Positions 1 through 24,312 are shown, counted from the first letter of the stretch. The stretch: 64,000 bases of DNA from Deltaproteobacteria bacterium (GCA_016183175.1 JACPFC010000026.1:41907-105906), one strand, 5' to 3'. Notes: a model not told the origin generated them from the letters alone. A program made the numbers and translations.

Positions 1-295
1 AGTCCATCAGCGCCGCGACTTCCGAGGCGTCAAAGGGGATATCCATCGTTGCCGCCTGGATCAGCCGCATGACCTCCAGCTTGTGGTCAAAGTAATAGTA
101 CTCGTCCAGCGGCGCCTCCCAATCATGACAGGGGGCTTTGCCCGAGCGTCTGATCAGGGTGTTGCGAAACGACTTCAAAAGCGGCAGGTAGGGGTTCTGC
201 GCAACGGTGACCTCCGGATGGACGCTTAAGATCATGTCCAGGAGGTTGGTCCCGCCGCGCGGGGTGCCGCTGATAATCAGGGGTCTTATTGGCAT
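1..295 (-). CDS. Sulfotransferase family protein, partial (C-terminus beyond window start)
   Basis: Minus-strand ORF starting at ATG 293-295 and running off the window. N-terminus MPIRPLIISGTPRGGTNLLDMIL carries the PAPS 5'-phosphosulfate-binding loop typical of sulfotransferases. Paralogous to the 13246..14445 gene. Confidence 0.6.
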   Translation of the reverse strand, partial: MPIRPLIISGTPRGGTNLLDMILSVHPEVTVAQNPYLPLLKSFRNTLIRRSGKAPCHDWEAPLDEYYYFDHKLEVMRLIQAATMDIPFDASEVAALMD

Positions 296-301
296 TGTGC
301 C

Positions 302-2212: not shown

Positions 2213-2829
2213 CGTGACTCCTTTTTTGTGTTGGTTTTTTCCCAGCGCATGGGCAAAACAGGGATATCGTTAATTTCCGCAAAGGGGGGAATCCACTCCT
2301 CTTTCAGGGCGCTGTAAATCACTTCATCCGCAAACCGGTTCTCGGCCGGAAGATACGCGTTCCCGCGCAGTTGGGCGTCTTTGCGCATCCGCAGTTTTTC
2401 CATGACGCGGATGGAGGCCCTGTTTTCGACAATCGCGCCGGCCTGAACCCGGTGGTACTCCCTTCTTTCAAAAAGATATCTCATGGCCGCCCCCACGGCC
2501 AAAGTGGCAATTCCCCTTCCCTGAACGTTTCTATCGCCGATGAGGTAAGAGATGTCAATCCACCTGTTCTCACGACTCCAGGCGGAGCAGGAGACATTGC
2601 CGATATGCCGCCCCTGATAATAAATCCCCCAGTGGTGGCGTTTTTTGGACTCGCAGTCCTCCAGAAACCGGATTACGTCCTCCTGCTTCAGCGGTTCGCG
2701 GCGATGACGGATCCCGAGATATCGGCGAATTTCAGGGTTGTTCAGCCAGGAGACATAATCCGGCGTCACCTCTTTATCCGTGAGAGGATTCAACCGGATT
2801 TCTTTTGCTATTGTTCCAGGCTGGTCCAT
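2200..2829 (-). CDS. GNAT family N-acetyltransferase (RimL-like; PseH-like candidate)
   Basis: ORF 2200..2991. The GNAT fold motifs (QGRGIAT...A) start after the internal Met at 2829 (MDQPGTIAKEI). The upstream extension overlaps the neighbouring neuB-like gene and is Arg/Pro-rich junk. Confidence 0.7.
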   Translation of the reverse strand: MDQPGTIAKEIRLNPLTDKEVTPDYVSWLNNPEIRRYLGIRHRREPLKQEDVIRFLEDCESKKRHHWGIYYQGRHIGNVSCSAWSRENRWIDISYLIGDRNVQGRGIATLAVGAAMRYLFERREYHRVQAGAIVENRASIRVMEKLRMRKDAQLRGNAYLPAENRFADEVIYSALKEEWIPPFAEINDIPVLPMRWEKTNTKKESRCKN

Positions 2830-3878
2830 CGGATCACGTCCCCCCCGACAATCCTGTGAATCGTTTTGCGGCCCACGACGGCGTCGAGAGACGGGGGCTT
2901 GATGCTTCCTTCCGGCGCCGGGCGGAGCACGTCGATATCTTTGCGTTGCAACAGATGACCTGCGGGCAGGTCGCATTTTGCCCGGAGACAACGCTGCTGG
3001 ACAACAAGACTCTCCCTCTCGTTTTCTTCAACCCGTTTCACCCCGTCTCCCAGCGAGACCTCCAGAAGCCTTGTCAGCTCCACCATTTCCCGCCACGTTG
3101 TGGGATTCATGGCGAATTTGTGGTCCGGCCCCTCGCGATTATTGTCATCCGTGAAATGTTTTTCCACGACCCTTGCTCCAAGGGCCACGGCTCCTAGGGT
3201 CGTAGCCGGGCCGAATGTATGGTCCGAGAGTCCAAGGACAAGATCGGGATAGAGAGATCGGTAGGTTTGGAGGACACGAAGATTCACGTATTTGTAGTTT
3301 TCCGGGCTTGCGGTGTAATTCGTGTTGCACTGCATGAGTACAAGATGGGGATTGATTTTAAGAATAGATTCGACAGCCAACCGGACATCATCGGGCGAAG
3401 CGGCCCCGGTGGCGAGGAGTACAGGTTTCCCTTTTCCCGCAATGTATTGGAGCATCTCAATCCAGGTAATGTCCCCCGAGCCTATCTTGTAGACATCGAC
3501 AAAGGGATCAAGATGGTCGACGCTCTCGAAGTCGTAAGGCGAGGAGAAATAATCGATCCCGACCCGGGCGCATTCTTCCTTTAAAACGGGGGTCCAGTCC
3601 CGTGAAATACTGTAGTCTTGGTAGGCCTCGAAGACCGATTTTTTCCAGCCGGACTGATGGGCCTGCCGCCGGCCAAGGTTCCTGAATCCGTAATCGCTCA
3701 CGATTTTGGGGGCCTGGAAATTCTGGAATTTGGCGGCATCGGCCTTCGCCTCTTTGGCCAGACCGATCAGTTTTTTTGCCCGATCCAGGTCTCCGTCATG
3801 ATTGGCGGCGATGTCCGCGACGAAGTAGGTCGGATGATCGGCGCCGATCTCCCGGCCGCTGATTTTGATGGTTCCCAT
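2808..3878 (-). CDS. N-acetylneuraminate synthase family protein (NeuB/PseI/LegI-type nonulosonic acid synthase)
   Basis: 356 aa. Has the IGxxHxxxxxxAxxLIxxAKxxGADAxKFQ N-terminus, a TIM-barrel region and a C-terminal SAF domain. Confidence 0.85.
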   Translation of the reverse strand: MGTIKISGREIGADHPTYFVADIAANHDGDLDRAKKLIGLAKEAKADAAKFQNFQAPKIVSDYGFRNLGRRQAHQSGWKKSVFEAYQDYSISRDWTPVLKEECARVGIDYFSSPYDFESVDHLDPFVDVYKIGSGDITWIEMLQYIAGKGKPVLLATGAASPDDVRLAVESILKINPHLVLMQCNTNYTASPENYKYVNLRVLQTYRSLYPDLVLGLSDHTFGPATTLGAVALGARVVEKHFTDDNNREGPDHKFAMNPTTWREMVELTRLLEVSLGDGVKRVEENERESLVVQQRCLRAKCDLPAGHLLQRKDIDVLRPAPEGSIKPPSLDAVVGRKTIHRIVGGDVIRWTSLEQ

Positions 3879-5644
3879 CAGATTTTCAAACTCGTATCCA
3901 GTTCGCTTCGGGACAACTTCGGCCGGATGTGCGCGTTCATCCTCGCCGTCTCCGGATGTTGATCCATATAATTCAGCGCCTCCCTCAAGTCCACCGGTTT
4001 CCCGGGCCGGTACAAGGCTTCGTGGAGCGCCTTGAAGAGGTTGAGATCCTCCTCGGTGTCGAGGGTCAGCCGGTAGTCCCGCCGATATTCGGACGGGGCC
4101 TCAAATTTATTCACGACAAAGGCGGTCTCATCATCCAGATACCAGGTGAGATATTCGGTGTTTTCGGGGTAGCCCGCCCTTTCAACGATGGTTTCCAGGG
4201 CCCGCAGGCTGATAATCTCCGTATCGCAACTGTAGGTAACCCCGGTCATCGCCGTGTAATCGGCGTGATTCTTCAGGTGGGATTCGATTGCCCGATCGAT
4301 CAGGGGAACGTCCCGCAAGAGGTCGTCTCCGGTGACGCGAACCACATGGTCGAGGCCGAATTTTTGTCCGGCGAGGAGCAACCGATGGGCTACATTTTCA
4401 TCCGGTCCCCGAAAAACCCGGATCCCCTCCCGGGCGGCAATTTCTGCAAGGATGTCGTCTTCCGGTTTTTCCGTGGTGCAGAGGATGACCTGGTCTGCCC
4501 GGGAACAGTGTTTCATCCTCTCGATCAAGAGGGCAATCGTTTCCCTCCCGCAGATCTTTTTCAAGGCCTTTTGGGGGAGCCGGGTGGATTGGGTCCTGCA
4601 GTTGATGAGAATCCCGACATTCTGCCGGATATCGAGACCGTTGATGAGGCTGTTTTTTCCTATTCGCCCGGCGGTCCGCCGCCGGGAGACAAAGTCCGAG
4701 GGGAGGGGATTGGAAAATTTCGTGGGGCGAACGAATTTCAGCTTTTCACACTCAAGGGGTGCGCCGGCCTCCAGCGCGCCGGCGGAAAAGTATGTCTTGG
4801 CCGCCTTTTCCCGATACCTCTGCCGCCCTTCCGTCCAGACGGGAAATTTACGGCTGACGGCCTCGAGCCCCCGGACGAGAGAGACGAGTCGGGCAAAATC
4901 CTCCGGTTCCACAGCCGACTCATAGTCCTCCCAGCGCCGGGAGCGGTCAAGGGTCAGATGTTTTTCGATGACGACCGCCCCGGCCCCGATGGCCGCCAAC
5001 GGAAAGGCAACGGCCAAAGGGTCTCCTCCGTCAATGTGATCGGCGCAACCGACGATCACGCCCATATCTTTATAGGTTTGGGAAAACCACCTGATCTCAT
5101 CCAGGCTGTGCTCCGAGGGAGGGGTCGGGAATAACTGGTGCCCCGGCAGGAAAACAACGGGGCTGTCGGGGGAAAATGAACGGATCCGTTTGACCGTTCG
5201 GTAGATTTCAACGCGTTTGTGGCCGCCAATGCCCAAAAGAACCGGCTTTCCCGACTTTGCAACCGCCTCCACGAGACAGGCGTTGTCCAGATCCGCCGCA
5301 TGCAGTTTGAAGGCATCGGTCCCGAGCGTTCGGGCCTCTTCAAAGGAATCGGGGCCGAAAATATCGGCAAAGATTGCTACTCCGGCCTCGCGCAATCTCG
5401 CGAAGATCTTCCTCCATGTGTCCATTCCGAATTCCAGTTTCTTGAAAAGGGCGTAATCGGCGTGGTCGGGGTTGCAAAGTTCGTCCGCCTTGTAGAACTG
5501 GAATTTGACGGCGTCCGCACGGCACCGGATGGCCGCGAGAACGAGCTCCAGACACTGATCCGGCGAACCCATGTGGCCCCCGGCAATCTCGGCGATCACC
5601 GTGTATTTCCCTCCCAAAAAAGATTTTTCAAGGGATTGGATCAT
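3878..5644 (-). CDS. Fusion protein: NeuB-like nonulosonic acid synthase (with SAF) plus C-terminal acylneuraminate cytidylyltransferase (SpsE/SpsF-like)
   Basis: ORF 3878..5893. The likely start is Met84 (MIQSLEKS, coordinate 5644), abutting the stop of the GT4 gene. The N-terminal half has VIAEIAGGHMGS...AVKFQ (NeuB). The C-terminal half has GILINCRTQSTRLPQKAL...VRVTGDDLLRD (CTP_transf_3 cytidylyltransferase). Confidence 0.75.
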   Translation of the reverse strand: MIQSLEKSFLGGKYTVIAEIAGGHMGSPDQCLELVLAAIRCRADAVKFQFYKADELCNPDHADYALFKKLEFGMDTWRKIFARLREAGVAIFADIFGPDSFEEARTLGTDAFKLHAADLDNACLVEAVAKSGKPVLLGIGGHKRVEIYRTVKRIRSFSPDSPVVFLPGHQLFPTPPSEHSLDEIRWFSQTYKDMGVIVGCADHIDGGDPLAVAFPLAAIGAGAVVIEKHLTLDRSRRWEDYESAVEPEDFARLVSLVRGLEAVSRKFPVWTEGRQRYREKAAKTYFSAGALEAGAPLECEKLKFVRPTKFSNPLPSDFVSRRRTAGRIGKNSLINGLDIRQNVGILINCRTQSTRLPQKALKKICGRETIALLIERMKHCSRADQVILCTTEKPEDDILAEIAAREGIRVFRGPDENVAHRLLLAGQKFGLDHVVRVTGDDLLRDVPLIDRAIESHLKNHADYTAMTGVTYSCDTEIISLRALETIVERAGYPENTEYLTWYLDDETAFVVNKFEAPSEYRRDYRLTLDTEEDLNLFKALHEALYRPGKPVDLREALNYMDQHPETARMNAHIRPKLSRSELDTSLKI

Positions 5645-6774
5645 TGCACCGCGGAATTTTTTTCCGGTCGCCGGCTTTTCCTGTTCTGATAATGCTCCCG
5701 GGCCATACGGTAGGCTCGCGGGATGTTTTGGGCATGGCGTTCCCAGTCCGCCTCTTTCATGATTTTTTTCCGATTTGCCGTTCCCATCTCTTCCCGCCGG
5801 GTTTTTCCGGAAACGGCGTTCAGGACGGCCGCGCAAATATCCTTCGCGCTGGCGCAATCGACCAGCCAGCCGTTTTCCCCATCCCTGACCCATTCAAGAT
5901 TGCCGTGTTCCCGGTGGACGATAACCGGCAGGCCGCAGGCCATCGCCTCAAGCAGGGAGACGGAACTCCCGTCCCGCAATGAAGAGCTGATGTAAAAATC
6001 GGAGGCGCCGTACCATACGGGAAGCTCCTCCTCGTCGATCCACCCGGGGGAGTGAATACTTCCGTCCAATTTCAACTGTTTGATCTGCTTACGGATCTCG
6101 TCCCGCAACGGGCCGTCTCCGGCCAGGATCAGCCTGACTTTCGGAAGTCGCTCCCGAAGAAGGGAAAAGGCTTCAACGAGAACCGGAATTCCATAATGGG
6201 GCAACCACGATCGCGTGGAAATCAACACCGTATTGTCGGTCCATCCCAGGCCTTGTCGAAGCGCGCGGGAACGGGTTCCGGGCAGATCCCGGAACCGATC
6301 CAGCTCCACTCCCCATGGGAACCGCATGGTCGGAATGCGGAGATCGGGCATCCATCCATCGAGTTTTTTCAGAACGGACCCGCAATCGACAATCAGTGCG
6401 TTCACCTCAAGAAGATTTCGGAGCAATTGTTCTCTTGAATCCGCCGTTTCCGAATCCATGGCCAGGATGTCGCTTCCCCATGACATTCCGACCAACGGCC
6501 GATCGATCTGTCCGACGATCCGGGGCAACACGCTGTTTAAAGGACCCGCGTGGACGACGTGGACATCGTGGCGCTCTGCGAGTTCCTGCCACAGGCTCAC
6601 CGGCTGACCGATTCCGGGCCAGAGAGCGACGGAAGGGGGAAGGGTCAGATTCTTCAGGACTTGAGAACCATTGACGGGGGCAAACCATGTCTTCCCGATC
6701 TGCCGGCCGATCGCCTTCAAAAACCGCCTGTCGTGCGGGGTATAGGATTCCGAAACGTAGAGAACGCTCCTCAC
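5641..6774 (-). CDS. Glycosyltransferase family 4 (GT-B)
   Basis: 377 aa, with the C-terminal GT4 signature ...SLLEAMACGLPVIV...GENGWLV. Confidence 0.8.
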   Translation of the reverse strand: MRSVLYVSESYTPHDRRFLKAIGRQIGKTWFAPVNGSQVLKNLTLPPSVALWPGIGQPVSLWQELAERHDVHVVHAGPLNSVLPRIVGQIDRPLVGMSWGSDILAMDSETADSREQLLRNLLEVNALIVDCGSVLKKLDGWMPDLRIPTMRFPWGVELDRFRDLPGTRSRALRQGLGWTDNTVLISTRSWLPHYGIPVLVEAFSLLRERLPKVRLILAGDGPLRDEIRKQIKQLKLDGSIHSPGWIDEEELPVWYGASDFYISSSLRDGSSVSLLEAMACGLPVIVHREHGNLEWVRDGENGWLVDCASAKDICAAVLNAVSGKTRREEMGTANRKKIMKEADWERHAQNIPRAYRMAREHYQNRKSRRPEKNSAVQ

Positions 6775-8174
6775 GATGCTGTCCCCAGAAGACCTGCCTT
6801 GACCAGGGCCTCAATTTGAGGGGCAAAACTCCAGACCGGCTGATTGGCGGATGAAGCGATACTGATGAGGTCCCGCTCCCCATTCGAATAAGCCAGCAGA
6901 TATCTTGTTCTCTCAACATCTTTTGGTAAAAATTGTCCCGCCCCGATCGTGGGATACAATTTATGTTTGCTCAAATGCGGTTCACAATAAGGGGATCGGT
7001 TCAGAAAAGTGTCGTTCAGTTCAAGCGCCTGAATAATCCTTAGGCACATTCTTAATGAATCCGCCATGGCGTCCGGCTTGACAAAATTCATGTTGTCGAG
7101 CGACGAATGATACTCCGGAAATTTCTGGTATCGGGACCTCATCAGCGATCCCACCGGAAGGGCGAAGCCGGGAGAGCAGTATTGCGTTTCATCACTGCCG
7201 CTGGGGAAAAAATCGACGATGTTCACCCGGCCGTCCTTTCCAAGATGGCCCAGACAATGTTCGGCCGCCCGGTCCGCGATGGTGTCGGCCCGCAACGACC
7301 GTTTGTAGGTGTAGGGGCCCGGATCGCCGACGCAGGTGAGCACATAACCGGCATGGAGTTTCTTGCGCAGATGGTCTCCTTCCTGATGCAGGTAGACGAT
7401 GGCGCCGATTGTCTCCGGGACGAAGACAAAGCGATACGTGTAGCGCAGTTTCATCGGCGAGAGAATGTTGCAGAGAAATGCGGTGAGGACGACTCCCGAG
7501 AGGTTGTCGTCCGCCTGCGAGGGATGGCAGATATAAGTCGAAAAGAGAATTTCCCTGTCTGAAAAACCGGGAATCACCGCATCGGCCAGGGTCAGAGAGC
7601 CTTGGGACAAACGGCTGTCGATGAAGACTTCATAGACATCATCCGGGAGGGAATCGAGCTGTCTTTGACTTAAGCAGAACCCCCATTGCTCCCGGTAATA
7701 GCTGGTCACATAAGGGATGGCGTCAGGCTGATCCGGATTCGTAAAAAGATGAGGGCGCAATTCCTCAAGGGTCAGTCTCCCCGAATACGGAATACTGTAG
7801 TTCAGCACATGCAAATTTGAATTCTTTAAATCCACGATCGTCTCGCCCCGTGAATTCCTGATGGAAGCCCCCTGAATATTCCATTCCCTGGGGACCTTCC
7901 AATCGAACGCCTGATACCCTGTAGGGATCTCCCGTCTTTTTATTACCGCAACCTCGCTTAAGATATCGAAGGCTTGGCGAACCCCGTTTCCGGTGAGGCT
8001 TAAAGGTAACGGAAAGAGTTTTTTCATAAGGCTCATCATGGCCTCGCCGAGGTTCTCGTCCTCCACCCTTTTGACGGCGCGTTCCATATTGTTCCAAACG
8101 GCAAAGATATCCTCTCTCCCGATTGCAACTGTGCCGGTGTCGTGTCGAAGCGCCATTTTGTCCGCTGTGTTCAT
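6771..8174 (-). CDS. Aminopeptidase-like (DUF4910/M28-like) domain protein associated with nonulosonic acid clusters
   Basis: 467 aa. Assigned by family resemblance to aminopeptidase-like domain proteins found in Pse/Leg loci; no catalytic motif was verified. Confidence 0.4.
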   Translation of the reverse strand: MNTADKMALRHDTGTVAIGREDIFAVWNNMERAVKRVEDENLGEAMMSLMKKLFPLPLSLTGNGVRQAFDILSEVAVIKRREIPTGYQAFDWKVPREWNIQGASIRNSRGETIVDLKNSNLHVLNYSIPYSGRLTLEELRPHLFTNPDQPDAIPYVTSYYREQWGFCLSQRQLDSLPDDVYEVFIDSRLSQGSLTLADAVIPGFSDREILFSTYICHPSQADDNLSGVVLTAFLCNILSPMKLRYTYRFVFVPETIGAIVYLHQEGDHLRKKLHAGYVLTCVGDPGPYTYKRSLRADTIADRAAEHCLGHLGKDGRVNIVDFFPSGSDETQYCSPGFALPVGSLMRSRYQKFPEYHSSLDNMNFVKPDAMADSLRMCLRIIQALELNDTFLNRSPYCEPHLSKHKLYPTIGAGQFLPKDVERTRYLLAYSNGERDLISIASSANQPVWSFAPQIEALVKAGLLGTAS

Positions 8175-8178
8175 GAGA

Positions 8179-10034: not shown

Positions 10035-10037
10035 CCT

Positions 10038-11827: not shown

Positions 11828-11926
11828 TGTTCAGATGCTTACTTTGCAACTTCTTTGCGTTTTACAAAGAAGTCGGCGGACGGTTTGAAGTGCCATTCGG
11901 ATCATCTGGTTGGCGGCCCTGCCGCC

Positions 11927-14445: not shown

Positions 14446-14450
14446 GGATT

Positions 14451-15170: not shown

Positions 15171-15181
15171 CGATCAGGATT

Positions 15182-15778
15182 TCACCGGGTGTAAAATTCT
15201 CTCACGAACTCGATGTCCGGGGGCGCGAACGGGTGGATCCTTTCCGGGTGCCACATGAGTCCTTGAATGGGTCTCGTTTTATGCCGAACCGCCTTGACGA
15301 CTCCGTCAGGGGCCGCCGCCCATACATCCAAAACATCGGTTGTTTCAGTCGTCCCCATCCTGTGGTAGCTGGGAACTTCCCGCTCGGTTCCGTTCACGGT
15401 GATCTTGAGTGTTGGTGTTATGTGGCCCTCAACCTGGGTCAACCGGATTCCAAAGAAATGCTGGATCAGTTGCATTCCTCTGCAAATGCCGAGAAGCGGC
15501 AGATTCCTGTCCAACGCATGCTTGAGGAGAAACAGCTCGGTTTCGTCGCGCTCCGGGGCATCCCCCCCATAGTCAAGAAGGTTATTTCCACCCGTCAACA
15601 GGATTCCATGACAGGCGATCGATCGTACGAGCGACTCGGCCGATCTCACATGATTGGGAATGGGATAAGGAGTGAATCCGCATTGTAAAAGGAAGGCGAT
15701 CCATCGCTGATCCAGTTGATCGCGACGCTCCCTGTTCTCCGAGGTTCCCACGCGCTGGGTGACGCCGATGAACCTCAT
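15182..15778 (-). CDS. Class I glutamine amidotransferase (peptidase C26 / gamma-glutamyl hydrolase family)
   Basis: 198 aa with the GICRGMQL nucleophile elbow and a downstream WHPE histidine motif. Confidence 0.75.
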   Translation of the reverse strand: MRFIGVTQRVGTSENRERRDQLDQRWIAFLLQCGFTPYPIPNHVRSAESLVRSIACHGILLTGGNNLLDYGGDAPERDETELFLLKHALDRNLPLLGICRGMQLIQHFFGIRLTQVEGHITPTLKITVNGTEREVPSYHRMGTTETTDVLDVWAAAPDGVVKAVRHKTRPIQGLMWHPERIHPFAPPDIEFVREFYTR

Positions 15779-18132
15779 CGGATGACGGATACCCTCTTGT
15801 CGGAACAGTCGATATCAAGCATCTCGGCCTTTGCCCATCTTGAATAGAAAATTTCCCCGGCGCCGATCACCGCCGGAACGCCAAGTTCACCCGCCCGGAC
15901 AGCCATGTGGGAGTTGGCCCCGCCGTACATCGTAATCAACGCGGCGATGCGACGGGAGAAAACCCAGTCATAGCCCGGGTCCGCGCTCGGTATCATGAGA
16001 ATACTGCCGACGAGTTTTTGGCGGTTCTCATGGTGGACGTGGGCCACCGGGCCTCTGGCCTTTTGGAGGGTGATAAAATTCGGCGCGCTCTCGGGCAGGT
16101 GGAAATGCCATACATCCTCCGGTTTCGTAATCAGGGGGGGCAGGGACAGGCTTCTTGTGAGCGAATAATTTTCCTGTCCCGAGGCGATGCTTTTCTTCAA
16201 AACCGACGCGGCATCCGCGCTCGACGAATAAAGCTCCTTGATGCAGTTGATATCCGCGTAGGAGCATTGTTCAGGGCTGAATCCGTTTTCATTCCCCAGT
16301 TCCCTGAATAATTTGAGGATCTCGCTGACGTTGACGGTAAAGATAAATTTGGCATATTCCCTTGCCGCGACGGCCTTGCCGATGAAATCATAAAGCTCAT
16401 GGGCATCCAGTTGCAACGGGTGATGTTTCAGAAGTTTGCCGGTTTGCCGCAGTTGATCCGGAGACGGAATAAATCGGCGATTTTCCCGGCGGTTCTTTTT
16501 TGGGGAGGGGGCCCATGTGAAGTACTGATCGGGTTCCTCGTCGTACCGGGGGGACAGAATGTCGTAGGTCCCGGGCCTCAAGTGGCCGTATTTTTTTAAA
16601 AAGGTCTTGCGGCTTAAATATTGAAAGTCCTGATTCATCTGTGAGCCGATCGTATTCAAACTTCTTGTAAAGAGGTCATATTCGGACCGGTTAAGGATGC
16701 CGACACGCTGTAACGATTGAAGAAGTTGCACGGCAATGAATCCGGTGCGCGCCAAACCGGCGAAGGGAAGGGTTCCGTACCGCTTGCAATCTTCCAGGAG
16801 CCAGTAGATTTTCGAGACATTGTTCTGCGGGCTTTGCATGATGACGGAATGGCGCTTTTGAAGATCATTTATCTTCTCCAGGTCCTCATGCCATAGCCCG
16901 TCTTCGCCGTGAATAATTCTGTTGGTGAGCGCGCCAAGACTTTTTTCCAAACGGGCGCAATCCGGTTTGCTGAAGCCGTTTTTCCGGAGCTCTTCGGAAC
17001 GGGCGGTGAAATCAAAGGTGTAGCACGTATAAAGAATTTCAAATTCGACCTTGTCATGGTCGGTCGGAGACTCCAGAAGAGACTTGAGGTAGTAATTCAC
17101 CAAACGCTCCGAGAGCTCGGCGTCAATATCCGCGGGAACGAATGAGTTGAAGTCAACGCGGACGTCGATGTAAGGGAATCCGTGAAAACTGATCAATAAA
17201 GGGAAGCTTCGGAGGCTTTTATAGCCGTAGTTATCCCTCTGGTAGGCCCAAATGCTGTCCGTGATCAGTTCTTTATAGAGGGACAGGGTCAGGGGACGAG
17301 GCCGAACGCCGATCATCTCGGCCGGATTCCAGTCGGGCATGACGCCATAAATGGTTTTTGAGCCGTGGAGGTATGGGTGCGGTTGCATGGATTCTTTTAT
17401 CTTGCGGTAAATCATCCCCAGGGCCTTTTCGTGCCTTTCCGTCGAGATGTCGGGTTTGGGAACACCCACGAGAGGACGGGCCTGCAGGAGATAGAGATGA
17501 CCTTCGGCGCCGACGGCAAATTCGATATCAAGAGAATCCGTTTCCAGGAGAGATTCCAGCTCCCAAACCAGTTTGACGATCCTGCCCCATTGAGGAGAAG
17601 GCGCTTTTCTGTGCTTGTAACAGTAAAACATCTTCAGGTTGTTTGATCCGCCTGAAGTGACCGTGGATGTCCCCCGGCCGGCATCATCGTAATTAACGAC
17701 GATGTAGGGTCCGCCGGTATTCGGATCCCTGCTGAAGGCCACTCCGCTTAAGGCGACATCCTGCAACATCGGTTGAAGGAACACCTGGTCCCCGTCGTTC
17801 CCGATGCCGTAAGATTGAATGACCTTTGAGATTGCCTTGCGGACCGCCCTCTCTCCGCTCACATCCTTTACAGAAAGATGGCGGCCGGCCATGGATTCCT
17901 TGAAAGAATCCTCAACATACGCACTGCTTCGCACAATCAATGGAATCTCATCCAGCCACCCGGCCTCCCGAATCCGGTGGATCATTCGGGATGGCGATTC
18001 CTCCCATTCTTTCACCGTCATCCGGATTTGAGGGAGAACCCTTGCCGACTTTAGGACCGCCTCGAGGCGTTCCAGCGTTTCCGCCTTGGTTCCAAAGCGA
18101 ACCGTCATTGAAGTTTTTTTTGGACAGTCCAC
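15775..18132 (-). CDS. PEP-utilizing enzyme (pyruvate,water dikinase-like): N-terminal ATP/PEP-binding domain plus phosphohistidine mobile domain, no TIM-barrel
   Basis: 785 aa. The C-terminus YGGANSHMAVRAGELGVPAVIGAG is the PEP-utilizing phosphohistidine motif. The N-terminal ~350 aa resemble the PPDK_N nucleotide-binding domain. Confidence 0.7.
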   Translation of the reverse strand: MDCPKKTSMTVRFGTKAETLERLEAVLKSARVLPQIRMTVKEWEESPSRMIHRIREAGWLDEIPLIVRSSAYVEDSFKESMAGRHLSVKDVSGERAVRKAISKVIQSYGIGNDGDQVFLQPMLQDVALSGVAFSRDPNTGGPYIVVNYDDAGRGTSTVTSGGSNNLKMFYCYKHRKAPSPQWGRIVKLVWELESLLETDSLDIEFAVGAEGHLYLLQARPLVGVPKPDISTERHEKALGMIYRKIKESMQPHPYLHGSKTIYGVMPDWNPAEMIGVRPRPLTLSLYKELITDSIWAYQRDNYGYKSLRSFPLLISFHGFPYIDVRVDFNSFVPADIDAELSERLVNYYLKSLLESPTDHDKVEFEILYTCYTFDFTARSEELRKNGFSKPDCARLEKSLGALTNRIIHGEDGLWHEDLEKINDLQKRHSVIMQSPQNNVSKIYWLLEDCKRYGTLPFAGLARTGFIAVQLLQSLQRVGILNRSEYDLFTRSLNTIGSQMNQDFQYLSRKTFLKKYGHLRPGTYDILSPRYDEEPDQYFTWAPSPKKNRRENRRFIPSPDQLRQTGKLLKHHPLQLDAHELYDFIGKAVAAREYAKFIFTVNVSEILKLFRELGNENGFSPEQCSYADINCIKELYSSSADAASVLKKSIASGQENYSLTRSLSLPPLITKPEDVWHFHLPESAPNFITLQKARGPVAHVHHENRQKLVGSILMIPSADPGYDWVFSRRIAALITMYGGANSHMAVRAGELGVPAVIGAGEIFYSRWAKAEMLDIDCSDKRVSVIR

Positions 18133-18875
18133 GCGCGAGTCTTGTACGGCACAACAATGCGATCGAGGCCCGAAATTTCACTTTCAATCCGGTCGAGTAT
18201 TTCCTGAAATTTGAGTTCGCCGGCCTGCGCCTGCAGGTCATTCACCGACCTCCAAACGCCGAGGTATCTTTGCCGATCCATCGTTTCTTCGTGCGGGGCC
18301 TCCATAAAGATTGGATGATGAAAGTGGCCGGTGCCGATGAGCGTTTGTTCGAGGCCCCGGGTGTATTTTTCCGCACCGGAAGAAACCCTCTTCAAACCGG
18401 GCGCCATCGCACAGACAATTTCCTCGATCCGCTTCTGCAAGGGGCTTTTTTCCAGGTCACGCGGATTCCATAAGGCGCTAAAAAACCCTCCCGGTCTTAA
18501 AATGCGGTGAAACTCGGCGAGTGCGGCGATGGAATTCGTCCAGTGAAAAGACGAGGCCATCAAAATCCAGTCGACCGAGGCATCGGACAACCCCGTTTCC
18601 TCGGCGGTTCCTTTTGACCATTTGACCCGGGAGCGATCCCTGCAAAGACGCAACCCTTCTTCCCGCATCGCCTCATTGGGCTCGATGGCATAGCCGGAAA
18701 GACCAAGATCCATGAGGATCCCGGTCAACTTGCCGGTTCCCGCCCCGATATCGGCGACGAGGAACCCGTCACGGGCGGCGTCCATGTAAAGGGCAAGGGC
18801 CTTCAGGACCTGTTTGGAATAGCCGGGTCTGTGGAAATAGTGTTTGGCGAGTTCCGTATAATCACCCGGTTTCAT
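18105..18875 (-). CDS. Class I SAM-dependent methyltransferase
   Basis: 256 aa with the SAM-binding motif I VADIGAGTGKLT. Confidence 0.8.
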   Translation of the reverse strand: MKPGDYTELAKHYFHRPGYSKQVLKALALYMDAARDGFLVADIGAGTGKLTGILMDLGLSGYAIEPNEAMREEGLRLCRDRSRVKWSKGTAEETGLSDASVDWILMASSFHWTNSIAALAEFHRILRPGGFFSALWNPRDLEKSPLQKRIEEIVCAMAPGLKRVSSGAEKYTRGLEQTLIGTGHFHHPIFMEAPHEETMDRQRYLGVWRSVNDLQAQAGELKFQEILDRIESEISGLDRIVVPYKTRAWTVQKKLQ

Positions 18876-19432
18876 AATCGCCCGTCCTCAAAGGCCGAAA
18901 AAAGGAACCGCGCCAGGGAAGCGGGCGTTTGCGTCCCGTCGTTGTCGATGATGGCGTCGGGATTTTTTGGTTCTTCCGCCGGCAGGTCGATGCCCATCAC
19001 ATTTCTTATTTTTCCCCGCAAGGCCCTGCTGTAGAGCTTTTTTGCGTCTCTCTTGATGAGGACTTTCATGGGGGCCCGGACAAAGATTTCCCTGTAATTC
19101 CTGATATGGGCCCTGTTCCACGCATGCAATGCCCGAAACAGGGAAATGGTCGCGCAAACCACGTGAATTCCCTGATCCGAAAGGACCTTGCAGAGGCGCG
19201 CGTTTCTTGCCGCTATTTTTCTGCGGTGCGCGAGCGAATGGTCGAGAGGACTGTCGAAGACCCTCCGAAGGACATCGCCATCCAGGAAAACGGCATTTTG
19301 TCTGTTTTTCTTCAGGCGCCGGTAAAACAATTTTCCGATGGTCGTCTTGCCGGCCCCCGCCAAACCGGTGAACCAGAAAACGGTTCCATGTCGGCCGTTG
19401 ATTCGGGCCTCCTGTTTTAATGGGGAGGCCAT
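18872..19432 (-). CDS. cysC: Adenylyl-sulfate kinase (APS kinase)
   Basis: 186 aa. The Walker A segment VFWFTGLAGAGKTTIGK is diagnostic of APS kinase. Confidence 0.85.
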   Translation of the reverse strand: MASPLKQEARINGRHGTVFWFTGLAGAGKTTIGKLFYRRLKKNRQNAVFLDGDVLRRVFDSPLDHSLAHRRKIAARNARLCKVLSDQGIHVVCATISLFRALHAWNRAHIRNYREIFVRAPMKVLIKRDAKKLYSRALRGKIRNVMGIDLPAEEPKNPDAIIDNDGTQTPASLARFLFSAFEDGRL

Positions 19433-20346
19433 AGCGCGGGATTCAGGATCCGGTCGTCGACGGAACCGAAAACCATGTGGATCCGTTTTGGCAGGGAGGG
19501 GTCAACATCCCTTTTCCAACAGGAAATGTTTTGCTTCAGTTGGGACACGCTCTCCGCGCCGAAGACAACGGAAGCGCGAGGGGCCGCCGATTTGATATAG
19601 AGCAGGGCGAGTTCCGGGCGCTCCATCACCAGTTCACGGCAAACCGAATCGAGATTTTTCAAAATGGATTTTGCAAAGGCCATTTTCTCCGGCAACTCTT
19701 CCGGTTTCATGAGGAGGAGCCCCTGCAAAAAAATACTGCGGACATAGATGCCCTTCCCAAGCCTCTCCGCCAGGCCAAAAACTCCCTGGTCAAGAAAGCG
19801 GCGGTCGAAGAGGTTCATGGGAACCTGAACCAGATCGATCCCCTCTGTTTCAAGGGCTTGAAGGGCCCTCTCCGGCCGGTATACCGAGACCCCGATTTTC
19901 CGGACGACCTTTTCCTCCTTAAAACGAAGAAGGGTTTCTCCCAGGCCCCGGTTCCAGTGGTCGAGGAATTTCTCCCGGTGCAGGAGGATGCCGGAGAGTT
20001 GGGACAACCCGAGTCGTTCAAGGCTTTCGGAAAGGGCCTCTTTGAGGGCTTGTCCGTGAAGATGATTGAGTGAGGGATGAAATTTTGTAAAAACCCCAGC
20101 CTTTTGGGAAAGGCCCAGGGCTTTCAGGGCCTGCCCCAGAACCGTCTCGCTCGTTCCATAGTCCTGGGCCGTATCAAATTCCCGGATACCGTTCTCCCAG
20201 GCCTCTGCAACAATCTCCTCCGATTCCGACGGACCGGGTTGGCCCTTCCGGTTGGCGATTCCGTAAGGCATCCCGAGTTGCGCCGTGCCCAAAACAAGTC
20301 TCGTCGGACGGTCAGCCAACCCGCGAAATCCTTTCCGGCTGGACAA
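19417..20346 (-). CDS. Aldo/keto reductase family oxidoreductase
   Basis: 309 aa with an AKR TIM-barrel pattern (LVLGTAQLG...DTAQDYG...). Confidence 0.75.
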   Translation of the reverse strand: MSSRKGFRGLADRPTRLVLGTAQLGMPYGIANRKGQPGPSESEEIVAEAWENGIREFDTAQDYGTSETVLGQALKALGLSQKAGVFTKFHPSLNHLHGQALKEALSESLERLGLSQLSGILLHREKFLDHWNRGLGETLLRFKEEKVVRKIGVSVYRPERALQALETEGIDLVQVPMNLFDRRFLDQGVFGLAERLGKGIYVRSIFLQGLLLMKPEELPEKMAFAKSILKNLDSVCRELVMERPELALLYIKSAAPRASVVFGAESVSQLKQNISCWKRDVDPSLPKRIHMVFGSVDDRILNPALWPPH

Positions 20347-22525
20347 CCGATCGGATCGACTGAATCACCCTTTGAACGTCGCTGTCCAACATCGCGGGAA
20401 AGAGTGGAATCGAGAGGCACTGGTCGTAGTATTTTTCCGCATGGGGACAATCGCCCCGTTGGGTGCCGAACCGGTTCCTGAAGAGGGGCTGTGTATGGAC
20501 CGGGATGAAGTGGACCTGGGTTTTGACCCCCTTTTCTTCCAGTTGCGCCATCACGTCGGCCCGCGGCAGACCCCGTTTCTCGAAATCGATCAGGAGGACG
20601 TAAAGATGGAAGTTGTTTTGACAAAAGGCGGATTCGTAAGGCGTGATCGCCAGATCCAGTTTCTCAAAATGGGCGTTGTATTGGTCGACGATTTCACGCC
20701 TCCGCTTCATGAATCGGGGCAGTTTTCGGGCCTGGGAGATGCCGAGGGCGCACTGAATGTCCGTGATGCGGTAGTTGAAACCGAGTTCGACCTGTTCGTA
20801 ATACCAGGGAGGGATTGAGGCCTGAAAGTCGGACCTCAACTCCGGATTGACGAACTCGGCCGGATCGCTGGTCATGCCGTGGTTTCGCAATCGCTTGAGC
20901 CTCCGGTAGAGTTCCTCATCGTTGGTGAGAACGGCGCCTCCCTCGCCGGTGGTGATATGCTTGACGGGATGAAAACTCAAGACCGCCATATCCGAAAAGG
21001 AGCAGGAACCCACCTGCGTTCCCTTGTAGGTCGAGCCGAGGGCGTGGGCGGCGTCTTCAATGATGTATATTTTATGGCCAAACTTCTTCTCCGCCCGGTT
21101 TTTAATCCGTGTCATTGCCTCCATATCGCAACTCTGGCCGGCAAAATGCACGGGGATGACGGCCTTGACGCGCCCGGTTATTTTCATTTCCACGGTTTCC
21201 GGCGACAGATTATAGGTTCTCGGGTCGATATCGCCGAACACGGGTCTTGCCCCGCAATAGACAATGCAGTTTGCCGAGGCCACGAAGGTGTTGGGAGAGG
21301 TAATGACTTCGTCTCCGGGACCGATGTTGGCGGACAGACAGGCGATATGGAGGGCGGAGGTCCCCGAATTGACGGCCACCGCGAACTTTGAGCCGGTAAT
21401 CCGGCACAAGGCGTCCTCGAACTCGCCGACCTTTGGCCCCTGGGTCAAATAACTTGATTTCAGGACCGCGATGACGGAGCGGATATCGTCGTCGTCGATG
21501 CTTTGCCTCCCGTAAGGAGACATGGAACGCCTTGCGCTGTCGTCCGCGTAGGGTTTCCTCTTGATGATTTTTGGGAAGCCGCTTTTGTAATCCCCGTAAA
21601 ACTTCTCGATCGAATCATCGATGGTCGGCAGGGCGCAATCGAGCGCCTCTGCCAGCTTGCCGACGTTGAGGGTGAGGTCGGTTCCCCTCTTGGCGTCGAA
21701 GTTGAACTCTTCGATCGGCGTCGGCTCGACAAGAGACCGGTCCAGTCGAAACCGGTCGGCGAGCCTCACGGCGAATTCGTACTTCGAAATGCCGATGGGA
21801 CTCCCGCAATTGTAGATGCCGAGCAGGTCTTTCCGCGCCGCCAGTTCCAATACCCATGCCAGTTCCAGCGTGTAGATGGAAGAAAAGCGGGCATTGACAA
21901 AACCCTTGATCACTTGTCCCTCCTTAAGCCGATGGATAATCCATTCGGCGAGGCCTTCTTTTTCCTGAATGTTCCATCCAAAGATGTTTGTCCGGAAAAC
22001 GAGCGTATGGGGATGTTTAAGCGCTTCAAGCTCTCCTTCGTATTTGCTTTTCCCATAATAATTCGGAGGGCTGGGGGGGTCGGTCTCCGAGTAATCTCCC
22101 CTTTGACCGTCGTAAACGAGGTCGGTTGATATGTAGATGAGTTTTGCGTCGCAATCCTCAAGACTTTCGACAACGGCCTGCGTGCCCAGGATGTTCGTCT
22201 TTTTTGCAAGCTCCCGGTTCCTTTCGCACAAGTCGACATCCGCCAAAGAGGCGCAGTGAATGACGACATCGGGCTTAAAGCCCTTGACAACGGGCTTAAG
22301 GGAGTCCTGCGACAGGAGATCGACCCGTTGCGTTTCAACCCCGTCAATGGAAACGGGATGGGAACAATACAATCCGAGCAGGTCGAATTTCCCGCGAAAT
22401 GCGTGGGCGAGATTGCTCCCAAGCATGCCGCTTACGCCCGTAATGAGGATTTTTTCCCTATTGGGGAACGGCCTCGAGGCCCCAACGCGATTTTTCGATG
22501 GAATAGTCATCGGCGGTTTTTTCAA
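20312..22525 (-). CDS. Fusion: N-terminal RmlD-like NAD(P)-dependent sugar reductase/epimerase plus C-terminal DegT/DnrJ/EryC1/StrS aminotransferase (PseC-like)
   Basis: 737 aa. The N-terminus ILITGVSGMLG is a Rossmann fold (dTDP-4-dehydrorhamnose reductase-like). The C-terminal half has SGTSALHIA and SFHPVKHITTGEGG (PLP lysine) of sugar aminotransferases. Confidence 0.8.
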   Translation of the reverse strand: MKKPPMTIPSKNRVGASRPFPNREKILITGVSGMLGSNLAHAFRGKFDLLGLYCSHPVSIDGVETQRVDLLSQDSLKPVVKGFKPDVVIHCASLADVDLCERNRELAKKTNILGTQAVVESLEDCDAKLIYISTDLVYDGQRGDYSETDPPSPPNYYGKSKYEGELEALKHPHTLVFRTNIFGWNIQEKEGLAEWIIHRLKEGQVIKGFVNARFSSIYTLELAWVLELAARKDLLGIYNCGSPIGISKYEFAVRLADRFRLDRSLVEPTPIEEFNFDAKRGTDLTLNVGKLAEALDCALPTIDDSIEKFYGDYKSGFPKIIKRKPYADDSARRSMSPYGRQSIDDDDIRSVIAVLKSSYLTQGPKVGEFEDALCRITGSKFAVAVNSGTSALHIACLSANIGPGDEVITSPNTFVASANCIVYCGARPVFGDIDPRTYNLSPETVEMKITGRVKAVIPVHFAGQSCDMEAMTRIKNRAEKKFGHKIYIIEDAAHALGSTYKGTQVGSCSFSDMAVLSFHPVKHITTGEGGAVLTNDEELYRRLKRLRNHGMTSDPAEFVNPELRSDFQASIPPWYYEQVELGFNYRITDIQCALGISQARKLPRFMKRRREIVDQYNAHFEKLDLAITPYESAFCQNNFHLYVLLIDFEKRGLPRADVMAQLEEKGVKTQVHFIPVHTQPLFRNRFGTQRGDCPHAEKYYDQCLSIPLFPAMLDSDVQRVIQSIRSVVQPERISRVG

Positions 22526-23498
22526 TCAGGTCCCGGAGTTGTTCAACCGTGAGCCAGTCTTTGTTCTGATCGGAGGTGTATTTGAAATCGTTCCTGCAAA
22601 GTCCCGCATTTCCGTTGCCGGCCGACAATAATTCCTCCAGAGACCGCGGATGGCTTTGAATAATGAAATGTTCCCTGAATTCCACGGTATGACGGGCCTC
22701 TTCCCCGCTGATCAGCGTTTCGTGAAGCTTTTCGCCGGGACGAACCCCGATGATGTCAAATCGGCATTCAGGGTCGATCGCTCTCGCCAGATCGACAATT
22801 TTCATGGAGGGAATCTGGGGCACGAAGACCTCGCCTCCCCGGACGATCTTGAGCGCCATGAGGACGAAATGGACCGCCTGGTCGAGGGTGATCCAGAAAC
22901 GGGTCATGCGGGGATCGGTGATCGGTATAACGCCGGCCTTTGCCTTCTCTTTGAAGAAAGGGACCACGGAGCCCCTGCTCCCGAGAACATTTCCGTAGCG
23001 GACCACGGCGAACCGGACATTCTGGAATCCGCCATAGGCCTTGGCCGCGCAGAACAGTTTGTCGGCGCAAAGTTTGGTGGCCCCATAGAGATTGAGGGGA
23101 TTGCAGGCCTTGTCCGTCGAGAGGGCAATGACCCGCGACACGTTATTGTAAATGGCCGCTTCAATCACGTTCATGGCGCCGATGACGTTTGTCTTGATGC
23201 ATTCTGCGGGGTTGTATTCCGCGGCCGGGACCTGCTTCAAGGCGGCGGCATGGATGACGTAGTCAACCTGACGGAAGGCGAGCATCAGCCGGTCCTTGTC
23301 GCGCACATCCCCGAGAAAGTAGCGGATGCAGGGATATTTTTCGGCATCCCATCGCTGGGACATTTCGAACTGTTTGAGTTCATCCCGGCTGAAGACGATC
23401 AATTTGTTGGGCGCGTAGTTTTCCAGGATTATCTGCACCATCTTCTTGCCGAAAGAACCGGTGCCGCCCGTGATGAGGATGTTTTTGTTGTTGAGCAT
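22458..23498 (-). CDS. pseB: UDP-N-acetylglucosamine 4,6-dehydratase (inverting), PseB/FlaA1
   Basis: 346 aa. N-terminus NILITGGTGSFGK and overall PseB/CapD short form. Confidence 0.85.
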   Translation of the reverse strand: MLNNKNILITGGTGSFGKKMVQIILENYAPNKLIVFSRDELKQFEMSQRWDAEKYPCIRYFLGDVRDKDRLMLAFRQVDYVIHAAALKQVPAAEYNPAECIKTNVIGAMNVIEAAIYNNVSRVIALSTDKACNPLNLYGATKLCADKLFCAAKAYGGFQNVRFAVVRYGNVLGSRGSVVPFFKEKAKAGVIPITDPRMTRFWITLDQAVHFVLMALKIVRGGEVFVPQIPSMKIVDLARAIDPECRFDIIGVRPGEKLHETLISGEEARHTVEFREHFIIQSHPRSLEELLSAGNGNAGLCRNDFKYTSDQNKDWLTVEQLRDLIEKTADDYSIEKSRWGLEAVPQ

Positions 23499-23502
23499 CA
23501 GA

Positions 23503-24024: not shown

Positions 24025-24312
24025 AGGCAGGCTACCGCCCGCTCCCTGGAAAAAAGAGTCTGGAAATCAGGGAGATGAAAAGGCCGCCGGCAAAAAACCA
24101 CATACGAACAACACTGTTCACAAAATGTTCATTTATCGAATGTCCGGGAATATTCAAAAAACGCCGGGCTATATTCAAAATTTATCCGTCGACTGTCAAG
24201 AATAAACTCCGGGGCCCGAAAATATTTTTTGACAAAGGGGTTCTTTAAGAGTAGGGAAAAAACCCGCTTGGCGCTTGGACGCCGGTTTAAGCCGGTAAAG
24301 AGGTTTTAAATC

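Follow-up and report, generated by a model that had tools for sequence, protein, structure and literature searches.

The window analysed here is a 64,000-nucleotide stretch of DNA from a Deltaproteobacteria bacterium (GCA_016183175.1, JACPFC010000026.1:41907-105906), and its left part holds an operon in which core genes of pseudaminic acid (Pse) biosynthesis are combined with a five-gene cassette predicted to make a phosphoramidate donor and with two genes for sulfotransferase-fold proteins, referred to below as ST1 and ST2. Judging from the sequence and the gene neighbourhoods, we consider it reasonably probable that the operon makes a pseudaminic-type sugar bearing a (methyl)phosphoramidate group, which would be added by a recruited sulfotransferase-fold enzyme. 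All genes between positions 1 and 24024 are on the minus strand, as intact open reading frames (ORFs) at or near the places given by an earlier reading of the same DNA (hereafter the initial annotation), and the genes that it listed all exist. The operon comprises 22 tightly packed genes; a MarR-like gene at 23503-24024 comes first and ST2 is cut by the left edge of the window, so that the operon extends from 24024 to about 0.93 kb beyond that edge (about -930). Its junctions are mostly overlaps of 1-53 nucleotides (nt) or spacings of 3-11 nt, the sole larger intergenic gap being the 99 nt between the genes for the class-III aminotransferase and PseG. Contigs from independent Logan assemblies of the same organism (99.99% identity over 11.5 kb) continue the array past the left edge by one further gene, encoding a sulfotransferase-family protein of 407 amino acids (aa), which is followed by a convergent metallophosphatase.

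In the order of transcription, the operon encodes a MarR-like regulator, PseB, an RmlD-like reductase fused to PseC, an aldo/keto reductase (AKR), an adenosine 5'-phosphosulfate (APS)-kinase-like protein, an S-adenosylmethionine (SAM) methyltransferase, a 777-aa kinase, a hydrolase and a nucleoside triphosphate (NTP) transferase; then ST1, a class-III aminotransferase, PseG, the cytidylyltransferase CT1, an N-formyltransferase, PseI and a DUF4910/DUF2172 protein; and finally a GT4 glycosyltransferase, a NeuB-like protein fused to a cytidylyltransferase, a further NeuB protein (NeuB2), a GNAT protein, an AsnB-superfamily protein and ST2. Seven genes in this interval had been left unnamed by the initial annotation, namely those for the AKR, the APS-kinase-like protein, the 777-aa kinase (a phosphoenolpyruvate-utilising enzyme), the glutaminase-type hydrolase, the NTP transferase, a sulfotransferase-family protein and the DUF4910/DUF2172 protein, and it had also omitted the RmlD-like domain fused to PseC, the edge-cut ST2 and the MarR-like first gene. 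It thus missed a cassette of the Cj1415-Cj1418 type and both sulfotransferase-fold genes, and it is these that set the locus apart.

The cassette consists of genes for the APS-kinase-like protein, a methyltransferase, a glutamine kinase, a glutaminase-type hydrolase and a nucleotidyltransferase; it is complete and intact, as are the catalytic motifs of all five proteins. In Campylobacter jejuni, the glutamine kinase Cj1418, the cytidylyltransferase Cj1416, the hydrolase Cj1417 and the 3'-kinase Cj1415 form a route that leads from glutamine, ATP and CTP to CDP-phosphoramidate 3'-phosphate (PMC11800397). Membership of the corresponding types was assigned here from curated models, source names and pathway composition. 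The APS-kinase-fold protein (18872-19432), which we read as a Cj1415-like cytidine diphosphoramidate 3'-kinase, scores 185 bits on model NF004041 (cut-off 127) and falls below the cut-off of the canonical apsK model TIGR00455 (126 against 139 bits). Its identity has a median of 50% to 75 glutamine-kinase-linked copies and is 30-36% to ATP-sulfurylase-linked copies. The 777-aa protein (15775-18108) is a Cj1418-like L-glutamine kinase homologue (NF004508, 940 bits against 501) with a PPDK_N ATP-binding domain, a phosphohistidine swivel domain and the invariant NSHM histidine motif. Homologues that are 54-56% identical to it are called 'glutamine kinase' by JGI, and we take NF004508 to represent the Cj1418 family. 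The hydrolase (15182-15778) has a class-I glutamine-amidotransferase fold, carries the GICRG cysteine and the HPE motif and is read as a Cj1417-like gamma-glutamyl-CDP-amidate hydrolase. The nucleotidyltransferase (14451-15170; Pfam NTP_transf_3, 72 bits), read as a Cj1416-like CTP:phosphoglutamine cytidylyltransferase, is 55-64% identical to the copies in the related loci L137 and L136. The SAM methyltransferase (18105-18875; Pfam Methyltransf_11) completes the set and presumably O-methylates the phosphoramidate.

The same set of genes recurs widely. A scan in which each species was represented by one genome showed the glutamine kinase in at least 583 genomes, and 80 loci from many phyla (L005-L084) were kept to count neighbours within 10 kb of the kinase gene. 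The APS-kinase-like gene is present in 75 of these loci (fused to the kinase in 38), the methyltransferase in 67-68 (median identity 44%), the hydrolase in 71 and the NTP transferase in 73-74, while ATP sulfurylase is found in none of the 80. The methyltransferase is therefore a member of the cassette rather than a nonulosonic-acid N-methylase, and the N-methyl decoration proposed in the initial annotation finds no support.

Beyond Campylobacter, cultured carriers of the cassette include Pseudomonas taiwanensis, Clostridium guangxiense, Chitinibacter tainanensis DSM 15459, Chitinilyticum litopenaei, Paenibacillus kobensis, P. algorifonticola, Cohnella boryungensis, Anaerotruncus colihominis DSM 17241 and an Azospirillum species, and it is also found in metagenome-assembled genomes from many phyla. 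In 18 of the 80 genomes the cassette lies beside an unannotated family of about 340 aa (YxIGLFGTGRxYINEL; for example L034:14469-15491, minus strand) that has no Pfam or NCBIfam match. This family, cluster 6 of the neighbours, was considered as a sulfotransferase-like protein and rejected (hhalign 2.5%). In 5 more genomes the same domain forms the C terminus of a 935-aa protein whose N terminus resembles BREX BrxC (343 bits; for example L032:13875-16682, minus strand).

Of particular interest is the gene that starts 5 nt after the cassette. Its product, ST1 (13246-14445; Pfam Sulfotransfer_3, 66 bits), is the candidate enzyme for moving phosphoramidate (or sulfate). The operon ends with the gene for the related ST2, of which the N-terminal 98 codons (2-295) lie in the window (1-295); the full-length protein of 407 aa on contig L003 scores 88 bits on Sulfotransfer_3 and is 37% identical to ST1. 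The AlphaFold2 (AF2) model of ST1 (pLDDT 92.7) shows a sulfotransferase fold with high confidence, and each of the 28 significant Foldseek matches in the PDB (E <= 0.001) is a sulfotransferase-fold protein that binds 3'-phosphoadenosine 5'-phosphate or 3'-phosphoadenosine 5'-phosphosulfate (PAPS), TPST1/2 being the first. The motifs GTARGGT and RDPRAxxxS, which are conserved in the ST family and present in ST1, correspond to the phosphate-binding motifs 5'-PSB and 3'-PB.

A scan of metagenomes with a profile of the ST family gave 51 loci, in which genes were called as simple ORFs. Every long contig among them is a pseudaminic-type locus, and the long loci carry genes for PseI, DUF4910, a cytidylyltransferase, a class-III aminotransferase, an AKR, PseG, a formyltransferase and a third class of NeuB. 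In L086 (9989-12298) the sulfotransferase domain is itself fused to NeuB and SAF domains. This distribution, together with the NeuB fusion, suggests that the ST family works in nonulosonic-acid biosynthesis. In the PAPS-type loci (L086, L092, L095, L138, L140 and L142) the ST gene lies beside an ATP sulfurylase gene, which is either alone or fused to pyruvate kinase; APS kinase is seen in all of them except L092 and is fused to the ST in L140, and CysQ occurs only in L138, with a TauE permease. These six loci are real PAPS systems. In the cassette-type loci (the window, L117, L136, L137 and the P0126 contig) genes of the glutamine-kinase cassette stand in the corresponding place, and in two of these loci, L137 and the P0126 contig, the ST gene lies among the cassette genes. 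L117, an unrelated 614-kb contig, repeats nearly the whole architecture at 27-48% identity, with genes for RmlD, PseC, AKR, NeuB-like, cytidylyltransferase, aminotransferase, PseG, formyltransferase, PseI, ST, DUF4910, methyltransferase, a fused APS-kinase-glutamine kinase, hydrolase, NTP transferase, GNAT and AsnB-like proteins.

In the relatives the ST family would sulfate its acceptor through a PAPS module, whereas here it is accompanied by the cassette, and a swap of the donor module is therefore indicated. We see an even chance that a family which normally sulfates nonulosonic acids from PAPS exchanged, in one lineage, its sulfurylase module for the glutamine-kinase module and now installs (methyl)phosphoramidate. 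Neighbour-joining trees of the family (about 380 columns) place ST1 in a clade of ten sequences, in which all four members with visible context are cassette-linked, and the sister group is sulfurylase-linked. In addition, a different Sulfotransfer_3 family, homologous to that of ST1 (hhalign 98%, E 6e-14), lies within about 6 kb of the glutamine kinase in 19 of the 80 cassette loci. Of the same 80 loci, 8 have a CysQ-like phosphatase and none a sulfurylase.

Several kinds of protein fusion were seen in the related loci (L086:9989-12298, L140:3293-5338, L095:4002-6167 and proteins P0148 and P0162), joining ST, NeuB and SAF; CTP_transf_3 and class-III aminotransferase; pyruvate kinase and ATP sulfurylase; APS kinase and ST; and ST and methyltransferase.

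The most serious alternative is that ST1 and ST2 are ordinary PAPS sulfotransferases that act on the nonulosonic acid, while another transferase places the phosphoramidate and the two chemistries merely share an operon. PAPS would then come from housekeeping enzymes or from the local kinase, if it also accepts APS. A good deal weighs on the side of this alternative and against phosphoramidate transfer by ST1. Relatives of ST1 and ST2 sit with true PAPS genes, the ST family being found beside both ATP sulfurylase and APS kinase in L086, L095, L138, L140 and L142, and sulfation is thus the default for the family; fusions of APS kinase to ST and of ST to NeuB exist as well. The donor-binding motifs are identical in both types of context, and no residues were found that separate cassette-linked from sulfurylase-linked sulfotransferases. 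The cassette-linked ST1 clade has a moderate neighbour-joining bootstrap of just 56%, and ST2 groups with sulfurylase-linked sequences (74% bootstrap). Many Pse loci with an ST gene lack a donor module within 10 kb and must draw on housekeeping PAPS; here, too, it could be made by a housekeeping ATP sulfurylase and APS kinase encoded elsewhere in the genome. About half of the 80 cassette loci have no sulfotransferase-like neighbour, and a transferase of another type, similar to Cj1421/Cj1422, is possible for the phosphoramidate. Within the cassette itself, the hydrolase has NF045546, the model for gamma-glutamyl-CDP-amidate hydrolase, as its top match over the full length at 109 bits, under the cut-off of 250, and the NTP transferase matched no specific curated model. 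The acceptor, finally, is one that we infer from gene context only.

On the other side, a search of the whole 64-kb window found no homologue of ATP sulfurylase, pyruvate kinase or CysQ, and the local kinase belongs with the cassette-linked copies and stays under the canonical apsK cut-off. ST1 abuts the cassette, ST genes are interleaved with it in L137 and the P0126 contig, and ST-like proteins stand next to sulfurylase-less cassettes in those 19 of the 80 loci. Apart from the ST genes, these loci show no candidate transferase that recurs with the cassette. Ordinary sulfation by both proteins therefore appears to us unlikely, though it deserves to be kept in view, and a mixed outcome, in which ST1 transfers phosphoramidate and ST2 sulfate, is possible.

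The sugar on which such a transferase would act is indicated by the Pse core, for which the curated equivalog cut-offs of NCBIfam were used. PseB, an inverting UDP-GlcNAc 4,6-dehydratase (22458-23498; TIGR03589, 500 bits against 408), PseC (TIGR03588, 495 against 423), the UDP-sugar hydrolase PseG (10790-11827; TIGR03590, 219 against 154) and the pseudaminic acid synthase PseI, the first of the NeuB paralogues (8179-9252; TIGR03586, 485 against 340), all exceed these cut-offs, which bears out the pseudaminic-acid pathway of the initial annotation. PseI-type orthologues in other loci are 48-52% identical. PseC forms the C-terminal part (aa ~335-727) of a fusion protein (20312-22510) whose N-terminal part (aa 25-312; RmlD_sub_bind, 150 bits) is an RmlD-like reductase of the short-chain dehydrogenase/reductase type with the GxxGxxG and YxxxK motifs; the same fusion is found in L108 and L122.

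Two steps of the pathway are covered less directly. CT1 (10038-10793), an SpsF-like cytidylyltransferase that is 38-44% identical to the cytidylyltransferases of related loci, scores 29.5 bits on Pfam CTP_transf_3 (cut-off 22.6). The PseF model TIGR03584 does not match CT1 and gives 22.8 bits against 205.7 for the cytidylyltransferase domain of the NeuB-like fusion; both domains pass the CTP_transf_3 threshold, so PseF activity may come from an SpsF-like enzyme. CT1 is probably the CMP-Pse synthetase, though it is not a PseF equivalog. No PseH equivalog was found among the genes of the operon either, and the "PseH-like GNAT" of the initial annotation (2200-2829) does not hold up on the PseH model TIGR03585 (21.5 bits against 93.1). 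A sugar N-formyltransferase (9249-10034; Formyl_trans_N, 72 bits, and N_formyltrans_C, 66 bits) lies between the genes for the cytidylyltransferase and PseI, and its top NCBIfam match is a dTDP-4-amino-4,6-dideoxyglucose formyltransferase model, under the cut-off of that model. With no PseH equivalog at hand, this enzyme is a possible functional substitute for PseH, and the N-formyl group suggested earlier is plausible.

Besides PseI, the operon encodes two further NeuB-family proteins: NeuB2 (2808-3878), with NeuB and SAF domains, and a third-class NeuB-like synthase fused to an SpsF-like cytidylyltransferase (3878-5644; CTP_transf_3, 77 bits). On Pfam NeuB the three proteins score 306 bits (8179-9252), 234 bits (2808-3878) and 124 bits (the N-terminal two thirds of 3878-5644), so that the three NeuB paralogues and two CMP-transferase domains counted in the initial annotation are confirmed. 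The KxQ, DH and EKH motifs, which we take to hold the catalytic lysine and the metal-binding histidines, are present in all three, with K54, Q56, K135, D220-H221 and E240-K241-H242 invariant. Pfam detects the SAF domain in two of the paralogues, and the fusion has a divergent segment that aligns with SAF. The two CTP_transf_3 domains (10038-10793 and the C terminus of 3878-5644) are 29% identical to each other.

The three NeuB proteins share a pairwise identity of just 26-34% and so are not recent duplicates. The possibility that some are duplicates or pseudogenes, which had been named as what would undo the earlier claim, is ruled out by this divergence, by the intact ORFs and conserved motifs and by the existence of orthologues for each class: NeuB2 has a 61% identical orthologue in L093, and unfused orthologues of the third class (30-41% identity) usually lie beside a cytidylyltransferase gene in related loci. 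The proposed placement of each copy as Pse, Leg (legionaminic acid) or Neu type succeeds for one, which is a PseI equivalog, and is not decided by curated models or PDB scores for the other two. NeuB2 stays under both the NeuB_NnaB (259 bits against 400) and PseI (210 against 340) cut-offs, the fusion scores 121 bits on TIGR03586, below 340, and NeuB_NnaB (TIGR03569) remains below its cut-off for every copy. Among solved structures, NeuB2 scores 153 bits with Bacillus subtilis SpsE, 138 with PseI and 133 with NmNeuB, and the fusion scores 85 with 6NCS (a 290-aa NeuB-family chain), 72 with PseI and 70 with SpsE, 6OEW matching its cytidylyltransferase part; both are roughly equidistant from SpsE, PseI and NeuB.

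The initial annotation explained these genes by several nonulosonic acids, or one heavily N-decorated acid, with neither P-N nor sulfate chemistry. Three divergent, intact NeuB proteins, two CMP-transferase domains, a formyltransferase and a GNAT speak for such a model, and the formyltransferase, class-III aminotransferase, GT4 and SAM methyltransferase that it invoked were all recovered in domain searches. However, it leaves seven intact, conserved genes unexplained, which makes it unlikely; the methyltransferase belongs to the glutamine-kinase cassette, and the AsnB-like protein lies outside the PseA/WbuX family (see below). In addition, no domains of a NeuC/LegG-type hydrolysing 2-epimerase, LegB or LegC were found among the 22 genes, and a separate legionaminic or sialic acid route is therefore not encoded in the locus. 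We regard the model in this form as very improbable. The Pse-type locus, the extra NeuB-class synthases and the tailoring genes of that proposal stand, while its N-methyl and amidino groups do not. Nor is the locus "unusually elaborate", as was thought: an accessory set of RmlD-like, AKR, third-class NeuB, cytidylyltransferase, class-III aminotransferase, DUF4910, GNAT and sulfotransferase genes recurs in dozens of metagenomic loci. The three-NeuB feature is real but belongs to a widespread environmental locus type and is not exceptional by itself.

Several of the remaining genes are likely to be involved in tailoring. The DUF4910/DUF2172/HTH_47 metallopeptidase-like protein (6771-8174; 296, 129 and 49 bits, respectively) matches PDB entry 3K9T at 400 bits and has a C-terminal winged helix-turn-helix, and its gene lies beside a sulfotransferase gene in nearly all related loci. 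The family includes Cj1295 (PMC4000134, PMC3068675), which is required for Pse5(di-O-methylglyceroyl)7Ac on C. jejuni flagellin (PMC3068675). The class-III (GSA-aminomutase-like) aminotransferase (11927-13261; Aminotran_3, 155 bits) adjoins the cytidylyltransferase gene in related loci and is fused to it in L140 (3293-5338), which suggests that it acts on a CMP-sugar. The AKR (19417-20346; Aldo_ket_red, 110 bits), which probably starts at 20292, recurs in related Pse loci at 31-36% identity. A GT4 glycosyltransferase (5641-6774; Glycos_transf_1, 113 bits) and the GNAT N-acyltransferase noted above (Acetyltransf_3, 78 bits) are also encoded.

The AsnB-superfamily protein (302-2212; Asn_synthase, 26 bits) had been described as AsnB/PseA-like and as the source of an acetamidino group. 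It carries the SSGWDS PP-loop, lacks the N-terminal cysteine (Cys2) and scores 22 bits against 267 on the asn_synth model. The PseA/WbuX model TIGR03573 gives it no match at E <= 1, and the same model recognises a true member in a related locus (L137:4569-5702) with 328 bits. Its AF2 model (pLDDT 89) finds 1MBZ, 1Q15 and 7YLZ as top PDB folds, with AsnB after them, and the nearest folds are thus beta-lactam synthetase, carbapenam synthetase and TsnB9. The model suggests an ATP-dependent carboxylate-adenylating, amide-forming enzyme and not an acetamidino synthase, and the amidino decoration via PseA is not borne out. AsnB-like genes pair with ST2-type genes in L092-L095, L101, L117 and L136. 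At least 810 proteins, each about 640 aa long, make up the family of 302-2212, and nearly all are unnamed or 'hypothetical'.

The genes, their families, their intactness and their conserved neighbourhoods are observed, and from them the following chemistry may be proposed. PseB and PseC would produce UDP-4-amino-4,6-dideoxy-AltNAc, which would be acylated by the formyltransferase in place of PseH, and PseG, PseI and CT1 would then lead to CMP-Pse5Ac7Fo. The cassette would provide 3'-phospho-cytidine-5'-diphosphoramidate, a PAPS look-alike, which ST1 could bind through its PAPS motifs and from which it could move the phosphoramidate onto the nonulosonic acid or a precursor, the cassette methyltransferase turning it into the O-methyl form. 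That ST1 uses a PAPS-like phosphoramidate donor in this way, with an O-methyl form made by the methyltransferase, strikes us as a moderately probable account. ST2 and its AsnB-like partner may add a second modification, and the DUF4910 protein, the GNAT, the AKR and the class-III aminotransferase may carry out further tailoring. The two extra NeuB paralogues may make or accept variant sugars, and, more speculatively, the RmlD-like reductase may provide one of them with a 4-hydroxy sugar by drawing off the 4-keto intermediate. The predicted end product is an N7-formyl pseudaminic-type sugar with (methyl)phosphoramidate, decorated before or during glycan assembly.

The cassette product could also be moved by the sulfotransferase-fold enzymes to another residue of the polymer and not to the nonulosonic acid. 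In C. jejuni, O-methyl phosphoramidate (MeOPN) decorates ordinary capsule sugars (PMC11800397), GalfNAc or heptose, and in most of the 80 genomes the cassette has no nonulosonic-acid genes within 10 kb. The ST1/ST2 family, however, occurs almost only in nonulosonic-acid loci, is fused to NeuB in L086 and nearly always adjoins the Pse-modifying Cj1295-like family, and the locus has a single glycosyltransferase and no other sugar pathway. We therefore think an acceptor of this kind improbable, and a pseudaminic-type acceptor is preferred.

The surroundings of the operon are as follows. The MarR/HTH_24-type winged-helix regulator (Pfam HTH_24, 29.7 bits) ends 4 nt ahead of PseB, and the order is identical on contig L001. 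Divergent from it, on the plus strand, lie genes for a Wzz-like protein (24313-25440; Wzz, 32 bits against 25.5, with GNVR below its cut-off) and an SLBB-domain protein (25444-26583; SLBB, 94 bits), which are possible export or chain-length components. Of the Wzz/Wza export genes reported earlier as adjacent, a weak Wzz match and an SLBB protein are thus present, and no Poly_export domain was found. In the divergent region (23400-24400), a promoter scan detected no signal beyond what chance would give. The composition of the locus (GC 0.52-0.58, against 0.51-0.59 for the whole window) shows no sign of recent transfer. The PFTS_polysacc protein, the flippase and the extra methyltransferases of related loci were looked for in the window, and none is present. 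Just past the left edge, a convergent purple-acid-phosphatase-type metallophosphatase (L004:3660-5072; Pur_ac_phosph_N and Metallophos) closes the locus. Beyond the Wzz-like and SLBB genes, on the minus strand, follow an 893-aa protein with five MopE-type metal-binding motifs and FG-GAP repeats (26600-29281) and a 436-aa ORF without a Pfam match (29283-30593), both of which may be surface proteins. Three other ORFs in the window have no or very weak family assignment: 42774-45617 (plus strand, 947 aa), 48107-52657 (plus strand, 1516 aa), whose sole match is to an acyltransferase at 26 bits, and 61938-63401 (minus strand, 487 aa).

Until now, reviews have described both MeOPN and the glutamine kinase of its pathway as Campylobacter-specific (PMC6429109, PMC9561416), and one preprint describes cassette-like genes in Borg elements. 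In the open-access literature we found no reports that tie sulfotransferase-fold proteins to phosphoramidate transfer and none that describe nonulosonic acids carrying sulfate or phosphoramidate. Both the Pse core and the route to the phosphoramidate donor were known before; what is new is their joining through an unexpectedly used enzyme family. MeOPN matters in Campylobacter for phage recognition, serum resistance and vaccine design, and, to our knowledge, its transfer step has never been demonstrated enzymatically. The locus and its relatives offer a testable candidate class of transferase, the sulfotransferase fold, and the PAPS-fed and phosphoramidate-fed versions of one system form a natural paired comparison. 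Sulfate and phosphoramidate, both unreported on nonulosonic acids, are the two modifications that these loci predict. If the proposal is true, the sulfated and phosphoramidated acids would be undescribed natural sugars, P-N chemistry of the MeOPN type would be widespread outside Campylobacter, given the number of species genomes that encode the kinase (at least 583), and 3'-phospho-CDP-amidate would owe its PAPS-like design to the fold of the enzyme that uses it. Cultured carriers of the cassette, such as Pseudomonas taiwanensis, Anaerotruncus colihominis, Chitinibacter tainanensis and Paenibacillus, are organisms in which this chemistry could be sought.

The locus can be compared with several known systems, each of which it resembles in part. 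With the Pse pathway of C. jejuni and Helicobacter pylori it shares PseB, PseC, PseG and PseI equivalogs and a cytidylyltransferase in the same block. In contrast to that pathway, it has an N-formyltransferase and an SpsF-like cytidylyltransferase in the places of PseH and PseF equivalogs, a PseC that is fused to an RmlD-like reductase, and two extra NeuB classes. Its DUF4910 protein matches the pseudaminic-acid modification proteins Cj1295 and CA_C2195 in family and domain architecture; the partners of the window protein are sulfotransferase-fold genes, whereas those of Cj1295 in C. jejuni are ACP, FabH and HAD genes. Beta-lactam synthetase, carbapenam synthetase and TsnB9 are the top structural matches of the AsnB-like protein, which has a PP-loop and no N-terminal cysteine; beta-lactam synthetase has no N-terminal cysteine either. 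The identity to this group is just 11-13%, however, and the window protein is about 140 residues longer.

ST1 and ST2 share their fold and two phosphonucleotide-binding motifs with PAPS-dependent sulfotransferases such as TPST1/2 and the CurM sulfotransferase. In PAPS systems, which use ATP sulfurylase, APS kinase and CysQ, relatives of these proteins are accompanied by a complete PAPS module, whereas the locus in the window is without ATP sulfurylase, and the sole PAPS-like donor that it appears to encode would carry phosphoramidate and cytidine. The closest parallel for this donor is the MeOPN pathway of C. jejuni, with which the locus shares a block of the same four enzyme types, the hydrolase and the cytidylyltransferase being candidates for theirs, and a methyltransferase. 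In C. jejuni, the methyltransferases are Cj1419/Cj1420 and the transferases Cj1421/Cj1422. Here, the host is an uncultured deltaproteobacterium, the cassette lies inside a nonulosonic-acid operon and not in a capsule locus, and the neighbouring candidate transferases have the sulfotransferase fold.

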